Shown: positions 51,003-52,997 of the stretch, one piece after another
Layout of the letters: each line of letters begins with the position of its first letter
How positions within the stretch are numbered: the first letter of the stretch is position 1
Assembly: GCF_022846255.1 (NCBI RefSeq)
Contig: NZ_AP025682.1
Length of the DNA stretch: 64,000 nt
Source of the DNA: Escherichia coli
Lineage (GTDB): Bacteria > Pseudomonadota > Gammaproteobacteria > Enterobacterales > Enterobacteriaceae
Reading direction: 5' to 3' (one strand)
Program-made: the position numbers and the translations under genes
The notes under the pieces: generated by a model
Told to the model about the DNA's origin: nothing
The model's database searches: none
What the model saw: only the letters and a program-made list of their open reading frames with translations

Positions 51003-51641
51003 TTTAACCTTGACTGGTTGAATATGACCAACTTGTCCCGTTTTCGGGTTATAGATCATTTCAAGACCTGCACCTTCATATCTTAAGTAGCCAGGTGCGC
51101 CTCTAGGATCCGGCTCAACTTTTGGATTGCTATTCAAAACTTCTCTTGCTTGCACGAATGGCGCAGGTCTGCCTTGCTCTCATAATTTCTCATAATAACT
51201 TTTGCTGAATTTCATTCCATCTACAGTATAAAAATCACCATCAAAGGATATCTTTTTCCCAATACCAAGGTAGCTTAATTTATTTGATGCAGCTTGCCCT
51301 ATAAGAGGCGTTGCCGAAGCCGCAATGATCTCCAAGCCCTGCTTTGTTTCGGTGTAGCTTTCTGCGGTCTGACGATCCCCCCCTTTGGTGACCATGAAAT
51401 AGTTAATCATGGCGTTTTTCACCTGCTGCTGATTCTGTGCATCAACACTGGTGATATCGAGGAGATTGACTATCTGACCATACGCATCAGCGTATTGCTG
51501 GCTGTATTTCGAGTTATAAGGGCCATCTTCGTACCCTTCTTTCGACGCAATAACTTTCAGTCTTGCGCTGGCACACGCTGAACTAACCGCCGTTATTACC
51601 GGAGATATACTGCTCCTTAAAGCCACGCACTGAACTCTCAC
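51003..51641 (-). pseudogene. hypothetical protein with an in-frame TGA (153 codons + TGA + 59 codons); possible polymorphic-toxin C-terminal module
   Basis: ORF track 51180..51641 ends ...KFSKSYYEKL; the same frame continues past TGA as EQGRPAPFVQAREVLNSNPKVEPDPRGAPGYLRYEGAGLEMIYNPKTGQVGHIQPVKVK to TAA at ~51000; AT-rich relative to the flanking tpsB-like DNA. Confidence 0.35.
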
Positions 51642-52997
51642 CCCCGAGGCTCAGTTGTTCCACACCATGAAGACGGTCCGGTGACCACTGGGCATAAGCG
51701 CTGGTCAGCCACCACACACTGTCCGTGACGGGGCGCTGAAAACTGGCGCTTAATGACCATTTCCGGAGCTGATTTACGGGCAGGTCTCCCCTTTTCCCGT
51801 GGTCGCTTTCTGCGCCGAACCAGGGCATCCCCCGTGTGAATACCGGATTCAGTGTTCCGCCCCCCCCCCCAGAAACTTGTGTGTGTGATTCAGCCCGACA
51901 GAAAATGAAGTGAGTTTACGGCTGCTGCCCTGAAGCAGAACATCATCCAGATAATTGTGAATAATGCGGTGCTGCAGACCTCCGGTCAGTGCTGTCTTCA
52001 TGTCCCCGTTACGGAACAGGACATGCGACAGTCCCAGCCGGTGAGTCTGCATGTCTCCCGTGGAACGCCACAGCCAGCCCCGGTTATCTATGGTGCTGAG
52101 GTAGTCACTCCATGAATACGTGTAATCCACCAGGGTATAGCCATACGGCAGACTGACACCGGCGGCAAAATTCCTCGCATCATGTGACACCGAAAAGTCA
52201 CTGCTCCGTCCCCCGCTGACAAACCAGTTGTCAGCCAGCCCCAGCGGATTATTAAAAGAAAGGACACCATTTAACTGCCCCGTACCGGTATTCTTCTGTC
52301 CGCTGTTGTCGATGCCCACGCTCCCTGTGACAGGCCATTACGGCGATGCCGTCAGTGTCACCACCGACCATCCCTCACGGTCACCGGGCGATATTTCAAT
52401 CTGTACCGGCTCCGTACGCAGACGGTTAATCTGCTCCATCCCCTGCTCAATATCCCGCAGGTTCAGAACATTCCCCTCCATTCCCGGGAAAACCATCTTC
52501 AGGGTGCGGGCAGGAAGGTCAGCGCCTTCCGCCCGGATTTGCTGCAGCCTGCCTTCCATGACCGTTATGTGCAGTACGCCCCCTGAAAGGTCCTGCTCTG
52601 TCAGAAAGGCCCGGCTGGTGATATATCCCCGGCGTATATAGCCGTCCGTCACGGCATCCGTGACTGCGGTCAGCCCCGTGATATTCAGACACTGATTCAC
52701 CCACGGTGCCACCAGTCTGTCGGTTTCTGCAGACGTCAGTCGGGTGGCCCCACTGACAACAATGCGTGACACCGTAAAGCAGGGACCTTCAGTACCGGCA
52801 GACGTTTCCGGAGACGGAGTGATGGTCAGCGGCGCACTACGCTCCAGCGCATCACGCTGGCGCTGGTTTTCATCCAGCAACTGCTGCTGTTGCTGCTGAA
52901 TTGCACTGCGGTCACCCGGAGACAGCATGGCTGCCGGAGACGAAAATGCGGGGATAAAAAAAACAGAAAAACGGAGAGGGAGAGATAGCATATCCAC
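51583..52997 (-). pseudogene. TpsB-family (CdiB/ShlB/FhaC-like) two-partner-secretion outer-membrane transporter, fragmented
   Basis: Three collinear ORFs (52338..52997, 51849..52319, 51583..51828). N-terminal piece has POTRA-like sequence (FTVSRIVVSGATRLT...YIRRGYITSRAFLTEQDLSGGVLHITVMEGRL); the first two pieces are in the same frame separated by an in-frame stop, the second and third differ by a frameshift at a homopolymer; total well short of a full-length TpsB. Confidence 0.65.
51860..51870. repeat. homopolymeric C11 tract (G11 on the coding strand) at the frameshift point of the tpsB-like gene
   Basis: Eleven consecutive C on the plus strand; the upstream piece reads ...HKFLGGGAEH* through it. 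Confidence 0.8.

Follow-up and report, generated by a model that had tools for sequence, protein, structure and literature searches.

The analysed stretch of Escherichia coli DNA, 64,000 nucleotides long and hereafter called the window, very probably carries the remnant of an E. coli cdiB-cdiA-cdiI contact-dependent growth inhibition (CDI) locus of the NC101 toxin type that has been inactivated many times over. At least six independent events have struck the locus: an IS insertion, a -1 slip, a stop codon at E252, a +2 change in a G-run, a large deletion and a stop codon at W196 of the toxin. Neither the transporter nor the toxin can be made, and cdiI is the only gene of the locus that is still intact. 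The initial annotation, made from the letters of the window, had described here a TpsB/CdiB-like transporter gene decayed by a nonsense codon, a homopolymer frameshift and a 3' truncation. That decay is real, but cdiA had been taken to be absent, and the IS and a second frameshift had been missed. The annotation is corrected accordingly: in place of a single TpsB gene with unassigned AT-rich DNA behind it stands a cdiBAI locus that has been inactivated several times over and still has its cdiI. Every component is already known, namely E. coli CdiB, the NC101 CdiA-CT/CdiI pair with its solved structures, IS600 and IS30, and a degraded toxin system with a retained immunity gene is likewise a known pattern.

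Composition and lesions of the cdiBAI remnant

The intact NC101 locus (L002, with cdiB at 1932..3704, cdiA at 3717..13586 and cdiI at 13600..13920) served as the reference. Alignment to it places the remnants in the order cdiB, cdiA, cdiI, which is the NC101 gene order. The homology falls into two collinear blocks, the first running from window 53025 to 51584 (cdiB nt 68-1508) and the second from 51585 to 46523 (L002 13001..18064), and DNA identity to NC101 is 97.3% across cdiB and 99.1% downstream. The identities of the parts rest on DNA similarity, pre-computed Pfam matches and PDB sequence searches. The features, with the basis of each call, are the following:

55513..55583, minus strand: 5' segment of the cdiB pseudogene, nt 1-71, MQRRQNNILTKTSLLSRALSVPCC (blastn and tblastn to NC101 and FEX669 cdiB plus upstream sequence)
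53026..55512, minus strand: IS600 (1264 bp) carrying a nested IS30 (identical annotated E. coli composites; terminal inverted repeats)
53965..55185: IS30 nested in IS600 (1221 bp; IS30 inverted repeats)
51586..53025, minus strand: main segment of the cdiB pseudogene, nt 68 to ~1507 (97.3% identity to NC101 cdiB)
52967..52971, minus strand: T5 run, T6 in intact alleles, a -1 frameshift at cdiB nt 122 (alignment to NC101, run lengths)
52338..52997, minus strand: piece 1 (ORF call)
52338..52340, minus strand: TAA nonsense codon E252*, G->T at 52340 (alignment to NC101)
51849..52319, minus strand: piece 2 (ORF call)
51860..51870, minus strand: G11 homopolymer, C11 on the plus strand, at cdiB nt 1224-1232 of NC101, where it is G9 (alignment, exact plus-strand run)
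51583..51828, minus strand: piece 3 (ORF call)
51584..51585, minus strand: deletion junction with a 2-bp 'TA' microhomology (alignment to NC101)
51000..51585, minus strand: NC101-type cdiA-CT remnant, the last 194 cdiA codons (99% DNA identity to NC101 cdiA)
51180..51182, minus strand: TGA nonsense codon replacing W196 of CdiA-CT (comparison with 5I4Q and NC101)
50666..50986, minus strand: intact NC101-type cdiI (106/106 identity to PDB 5I4Q chain B; Pfam CdiI-like)
50012..50572, minus strand: fragment of an IS4-family transposase downstream of cdiI (collinear with L002 14044..14547)

The initial annotation had recognized three collinear pieces of a TpsB gene, and tblastn supports this, the pieces matching NC101 CdiB residues 34-411 (96%) and 397-502 (88%). 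At the DNA level they are 97-98% identical to the ShlB/FhaC/HecB-type cdiB genes found in ~1,200 of 5,426 complete E. coli genomes. The product of piece 1 has pre-computed Pfam matches to POTRA_2 and POTRA_3, i.e. the two N-terminal POTRA domains, and that of piece 2 to the ShlB beta-barrel domain (PF03865); NC101 CdiB itself matches the crystallised E. coli CdiB (PDB 6WIM) with E=0. The NCBIfam matches of the six ORF pieces are weak ones to the BamA POTRA region, with none for the toxin or immunity parts. The main cdiB segment thus defined covers the POTRA domains and about two thirds of the ShlB beta-barrel. Aligning the pieces to intact CdiB, as had been proposed for locating the lesions, placed five of them in cdiB, against the three noted earlier.

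The 5'-most lesion is a composite IS600::IS30 insert of 2.49 kb that splits cdiB at nt 68-71, with NC101 homology breaking at 53025/53026. The terminal inverted repeats of IS600 lie at 53026-53052 and 55486-55512, and the GTTG direct repeat on either side of the element (55513-55516 and 53022-53025) duplicates cdiB nt 68-71. The short segment beyond it, MQRRQNNILTKTSLLSRALSVPCC, extends from the annotated start codon to the insertion site. The gene had been delimited as 51583-52997; the span holds for the ORF pieces, but cdiB does not start at 52997, its first 71 nt lying at 55583->55513. IS600 orfB holds an in-frame TAA. One -35/-10 match, with no evidence of function, spans the IS600 end and cdiB (53041..53013).

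The -1 frameshift at cdiB nt 122 falls in the signal-peptide region. Because of it, the GTG start and the first ~16 residues of piece 1 are spurious, and the true N-terminal frame of CdiB is the one reading CDMLRRISPWICYLSLSVF. Pieces 1 and 2 do share one frame and are separated by a stop, as had been noted: it is the TAA at 52338-52340 (GAA->TAA, E252*), a substitution private to the window's lineage. The substitutions in cdiB that are private to the window number 5 synonymous and 5 nonsynonymous, compared with 35 and 58 in controls, a contrast that is uninformative as to relaxed selection.

The 3' truncation also proved correct, cdiB ending at ~nt 1507 of 1773. The junction joins cdiB nt ~1507 to cdiA nt 9285, and the deletion of ~9.56 kb comprises cdiB nt ~1508-1773, the intergenic spacer and cdiA nt 1-9284. 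It took the 88 codons at the end of cdiB, which encode the final barrel strands (CdiB residues 503-590), and the first 3,095 of 3,289 cdiA codons (94% of cdiA), and the TAG that closes piece 3 is a product of the junction itself. The event was an illegitimate deletion with a 2-bp microhomology. The junction occurs in none of the 5,426 complete E. coli genomes and, by exact-product look-ups, in at least nine public contigs; the deletion allele is lineage-specific yet ordinary. A complete barrel in one ORF, with its C-terminal strands and terminal aromatic residue, is therefore absent, residues 503-590 being deleted and the rest carrying the IS, two frameshifts and one nonsense codon. Since the barrel is incomplete and the ORF interrupted, cdiB of the window is a pseudogene and not a functional member of the TpsB family.

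According to the initial annotation no large exoprotein partner followed the transporter gene, only AT-rich DNA. This was wrong: the AT-rich DNA is the cdiA 3' end together with cdiI, ~99% identical to NC101. The search for a cdiA remnant that had been suggested there found one directly abutting the cdiB remnant and followed by the intact cdiI. Window 51585->50600 is 99.3% identical to the NC101-type cdiA 3' end and the next gene, and cdiA in NC101-type strains is annotated as 'contact-dependent inhibition effector tRNA nuclease'. The GC content falls from 55-60% in cdiB to 35-43% in the cdiA-CT/cdiI part, and such a drop is usual in CT/immunity modules. Next to cdiB there is nevertheless no TpsA partner that has the N-terminal TPS secretion domain, as only CdiA residues 3094-3289 have homology in the 64-kb window, and neither other CdiA homology nor orphan VENN modules were found in it. 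NC101 homology stops at 46523, short of the orphan modules of NC101.

Counting from V1 of the VENN motif at CdiA 3035, the cdiA remnant corresponds to CT residues 62-255, that is, part of the entry domain and the whole 92-residue BECR tRNase domain; the crystallised toxin domain (PDB 5I4Q_A) matches remnant residues 103-194. The VENN motif (CdiA 3035-3038) lies inside the deleted segment, and the remnant has neither VENN nor a start codon. Apart from one I->V change and the TGA at W196, the toxin domain is identical to 5I4Q. The tRNase toxin of NC101 has a BECR fold and requires EF-Tu, and its Arg200 and His248 are essential (PMC5737660). The TGA precedes both R200 and H248, and no translatable toxin domain with its essential residues remains.

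Length variation in the poly-G tract

The change of frame between pieces 2 and 3 had been placed at an 11-nt homopolymer, and it lies exactly there, at the plus-strand C11 of 51860..51870. Relative to G9 in the intact NC101 cdiB, G11 is a +2 change that causes the frameshift between the two pieces. The accompanying frame arithmetic, by which a 12-nt tract would fuse them, was right as well; because the intact allele is G9, either G9 or G12 would restore the fusion. Closely related sequences differ from the window by 0-1 SNPs over 1.4-5.2 kb and have all the other lesions in common. Among them, G11 is found in DRR322657 and DRR322658 (besides the window), with 0 other differences, and G10 in GCA_005387485.1, GCA_005387665.1, DRR102837 and DRR684531. 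A G10-specific product is also recorded for SRR19238557 and DRR102846, bringing G10 to at least six samples. All of these lengths were read from assemblies, and the isolates behind the two G11 Logan assemblies might also be the source of the window. Together with the G10/G11 difference, the SNP at 53012 (C or T) fits one tree in which one further +1 slip occurs. Neither length is in frame, G10 giving a 226-aa product and G11 the 156-aa piece, and exact-product look-ups returned no record of the in-frame G9 and G12 products of the lineage.

The initial annotation had offered two explanations for the tract, a slipped-strand contingency switch or a sequencing error. What stands of this either/or is that the length variation is real; a functioning switch is not upheld, and a one-off error is unlikely, since G10 and G11 are split among near-identical relatives, which also marks the tract as slippage-prone. 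It might still be argued that G11 is a homopolymer error of sequencing or assembly and that the true length is another, e.g. G10 as in relatives: several sequencing platforms make errors in homopolymers of 10 or more, G10 is the length in most relatives, and the length in the window was read from an assembly. We consider this improbable. DRR322657 and DRR322658 are separate runs that went through a uniform pipeline and both gave G11, whereas other runs through the same pipeline gave G10; strain 200177, an unrelated complete genome, also has G11; and the split between the two lengths and the SNP at 53012 agree with one simple tree. Either length being out of frame, the biological conclusion is the same for G10 and G11.

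A working slipped-strand switch of CdiB and CDI in this organism would have in its favour a long homopolymer within an ORF, tract lengths that differ among near-identical relatives and recurrent shifts at the same site in other E. coli. However, neither G10 nor G11 is in frame, the look-ups gave no record of the lineage's G9 and G12 products, and even an in-frame tract would leave the IS, the -1 frameshift, E252*, a barrel short of its last 88 residues and a cdiA that has lost 94% of its length. With four other lesions in cdiB and with cdiA lost, every tract length is non-functional and the tract switches nothing. Compared with what defines a contingency locus, there is a hypermutable tract in an ORF and its length does differ among near-identical isolates, but ON and OFF lengths with a functional ON product are not seen, only G10 and G11. 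On these alignments a working switch at this locus is effectively refuted. The tract is instead a real mutational hotspot, polymorphic in length within the lineage, that goes on changing in a dead gene without functional effect. The poly-G/C contingency loci of Neisseria, Campylobacter and Bordetella (PMC1891110, PMC5084427) resemble it in having intragenic runs of at least nine G and length polymorphism. Their tracts, in contrast, toggle an otherwise intact gene ON and OFF, whereas that of the window is without any ON state. Programmed ribosomal frameshifting at the G-run was considered and rejected: intact alleles read through it as Gly-Gly-Gly/Val-Gly, and the other lesions preclude a product.

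To place the tract in a wider setting, its forms in E. coli cdiB genes are listed here:

GGGTGGTGT, in frame: loci L001, L003 and L004
G6TGT, in frame: locus L009
G8T, in frame: locus L007
G9, in frame: NC101
G5TGT, shifted: FEX669
G9T, shifted: O22:H8 154
G11, shifted: strain 200177

Strains 200177, O22:H8 154 and FEX669 thus have cdiB frameshifted at the same Gly-codon G-run as the window. Their cdiB genes are annotated by NCBI as 'frameshifted' ShlB/FhaC/HecB, and the frameshift is the only cdiB indel relative to NC101. Strains 154 and FEX669 keep a cdiA without a RefSeq pseudogene flag, whereas the window adds the IS, nonsense codons and the large deletion. In the 200 nt that surround the tract, 4 of the 60 E. 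coli copies of a spread sample carried an indel. A pattern scan of public metagenome and MAG contigs yielded 78 copies: G6TGT in 32, GGGTGGTGT in 20, G8T in 13, G9 in five, G10 in three, GTGGGGTGT in three, and G5TGT and TGGCGGTGT in one each. The three G10 contigs carry neither the IS nor the deletion and therefore lie outside the window's lineage. By allele, the shifted fraction in these 78 contigs was 0/20 for G3, 1/33 for G6, 0/13 for G8 and 3/8 for G9 or longer. The other cdiB frameshifts seen, in runs of T6 (nt 122), G4 (nt 618) and G5 (nt 879), fall in homopolymers too.

This spectrum is what marks replication slippage, here at a run that T->G substitutions in Gly/Val codons have made longer. 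The cdiB G-run is a recurrent, length-dependent point of failure across E. coli, an observation that is mildly new and concerns the population level; the literature searched held no report of a poly-G or phase-variable cdiB in E. coli. It is also conceivable, though we think it unlikely, that the tract evolved from GGTGGTGTC via T->G to G8-G9 as a genuine switch of CdiA export in strains with intact class-I cdiBAI, in which case the window would hold a still-slipping fossil of it. When CDI competence is inferred from genome sequence, the cdiB G-run should be checked.

The retained cdiI and its genomic setting

A cognate immunity gene lies immediately downstream of the cdiA remnant, as is characteristic of CDI loci. 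Its product, the 106-aa CdiI, is identical to CdiI of PDB 5I4Q/5I4R, the gene having one difference from NC101, which is synonymous. The locus and NC101 cdiBAI (PDB 5I4Q/5I4R; Michalska et al. 2017, PMC5737660) are alike in gene order and in the downstream IS4 fragment and nanY/nanX; the NC101 locus is intact and active, whereas in the window there are five cdiB lesions, 3,095 of 3,289 cdiA codons and the VENN motif are gone, and the tRNase is truncated before R200/H248. The loss of toxin and transporter with immunity kept fits the idea of lineages that abandon CDI weapons while retaining the antidote. We infer that cdiI may still be expressed and may protect against the EF-Tu-dependent tRNase of neighbours that carry the NC101-type toxin, and that it may represent an orphan-immunity remnant.

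Similar arrangements are known from orphan cdiA-CT/cdiI modules (Poole et al. 2011, PMC3150448; PMC7400221; review PMC9086364), which likewise combine a start-less toxin fragment with an intact cognate immunity gene. In those modules, as in the window, the cell is unable to deploy the toxin concerned, and the proposed role is protection against the toxins of neighbours. The orphan CdiI of S. Typhi is among the stand-alone orphan immunity genes (PMC7400221). Classical orphans encode active toxins, follow a functional cdi locus on its downstream side and usually begin with VENN; the orphan of the window differs in that a deletion within the main locus itself gave rise to it, its first CT residue is 62 and it bears a nonsense codon.

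The opposing view is that the whole remnant, cdiI included, is functionless debris, and that cdiI is intact since it is small and the decay recent, not through use. This is quite possible, although we lean away from it. Promoter scanning gave two promoter-like sites against 3.3 expected from shuffled sequence, with none immediately upstream of cdiI, so that a convincing promoter is not found there, and two IS elements and several stops now stand between cdiI and the native cdiB promoter, which has been displaced upstream by 2.5 kb. Moreover, at ~0.9% divergence ~3 changes would be expected in the 321 nt of cdiI, and the single synonymous one seen is not significantly fewer; the intactness of the gene is not statistically remarkable. 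Against this stands the fate of the adjacent 586-nt cdiA-CT remnant, in which all five nucleotide differences from NC101 change the protein, one of them to a stop, whereas cdiI took no such hit. Furthermore, orphan immunity genes have been described as apparently expressed and likely protective (PMC9086364). The reading of cdiI as a possibly protective remnant could be pursued in this very lineage, which offers a clean natural case for testing immunity retention with the well-characterised NC101 toxin.

The locus is part of a genomic island that starts at a tRNA-Phe gene (35386..35461), followed by an integrase at 35596..36924. The flanking core genes groEL, aspA, dcuA and dsbD identify the island site as pheU. 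Besides the cdi remnant, the island holds Saf-like chaperone-usher fimbrial genes, transposases of the IS3 and IS630 families and nanX/nanY-like genes, and a dGTPase-family gene lies just upstream of cdiB. The IS4 fragment downstream of cdiI is common to the window and the NC101 locus and belongs to the ancestral context. None of the 5,426 complete E. coli genomes exceeds 99.2% identity to the core backbone, which indicates an Escherichia/Shigella-type lineage that is poorly represented among them.

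Frameshifts and the tract motif outside the window

In further E. coli strains, cdiB is frameshifted at different positions, through a G5-to-G6 change at nt 879 in two strains (L004 and L007) and a G4-to-G3 change at nt 618 in L003, both sites lying in G-runs shorter than the tract (the glycine-codon G-run of cdiB). In T309.Ta3 (L004), the cdiB frameshifted at nt 879 adjoins a cdiA that bears no pseudogene flag. In these cdi loci, the broken component is often cdiB.

The exact E. coli motif flanking the cdiB tract (26 specified bases) is also present in two contigs, L017 (JAETPU010000051.1) and L018 (JAFAFN010000140.1), from MAGs labelled as Marvinbryantia formatexigens and Actinomycetes bacterium. 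Its occurrence there is probably due to bin contamination. The tract in L018 is the G5TGT frameshift allele.

The IS600::IS30 composite in cdiB

53026..55512, IS600 with a nested IS30 (IS30 at 53965..55185)
53013..53041, minus strand, sigma-70-like match (TTGCCA, 17-nt spacer, TG-TATGCT)

The 2.48-kb composite is found at about 99.6% identity and at least 80% coverage in 996 of the 5,426 complete E. coli genomes, where its location varies and a single genome may have it in as many as 12 places. Since a target duplication borders the window copy, IS600 and its nested IS30 are suggested to move or persist as one unit. The orfB of this IS600 copy contains an in-frame TAA (~53549-53554).

The sigma-70-like match straddles the border between the end of IS600 and the cdiB bases that come first after the insertion. 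Possibly the insertion generated a hybrid promoter reading into the cdiB pseudogene, a prediction from a sequence scan whose total was below chance expectation.

Genomic surroundings

55965..57218, plus strand, dGTP triphosphohydrolase-family gene directly upstream of cdiB
5529..5948, minus strand, three tandem tRNA-Gly(GCC) genes (glyVXY-type cluster), core region upstream of the pheU island
35386..49435, pheU island content described
35596..36924, integrase
38724..41312, usher of a Saf-like chaperone-usher fimbrial cluster
41480..42247, chaperone of the same cluster
47028..49435, nanX/nanY-like genes

As in the window, a dGTP triphosphohydrolase-family gene directly precedes cdiB in other E. 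coli islands. With 321 bits, the product of the window gene is accepted by the general dGTPase subfamily model, but against the anti-phage dGTPase model it reaches 286 bits, short of that model's curated cut-off of 400. The described part of the pheU island also holds a tRNA-Phe and transposases of the IS3 and IS630 families.
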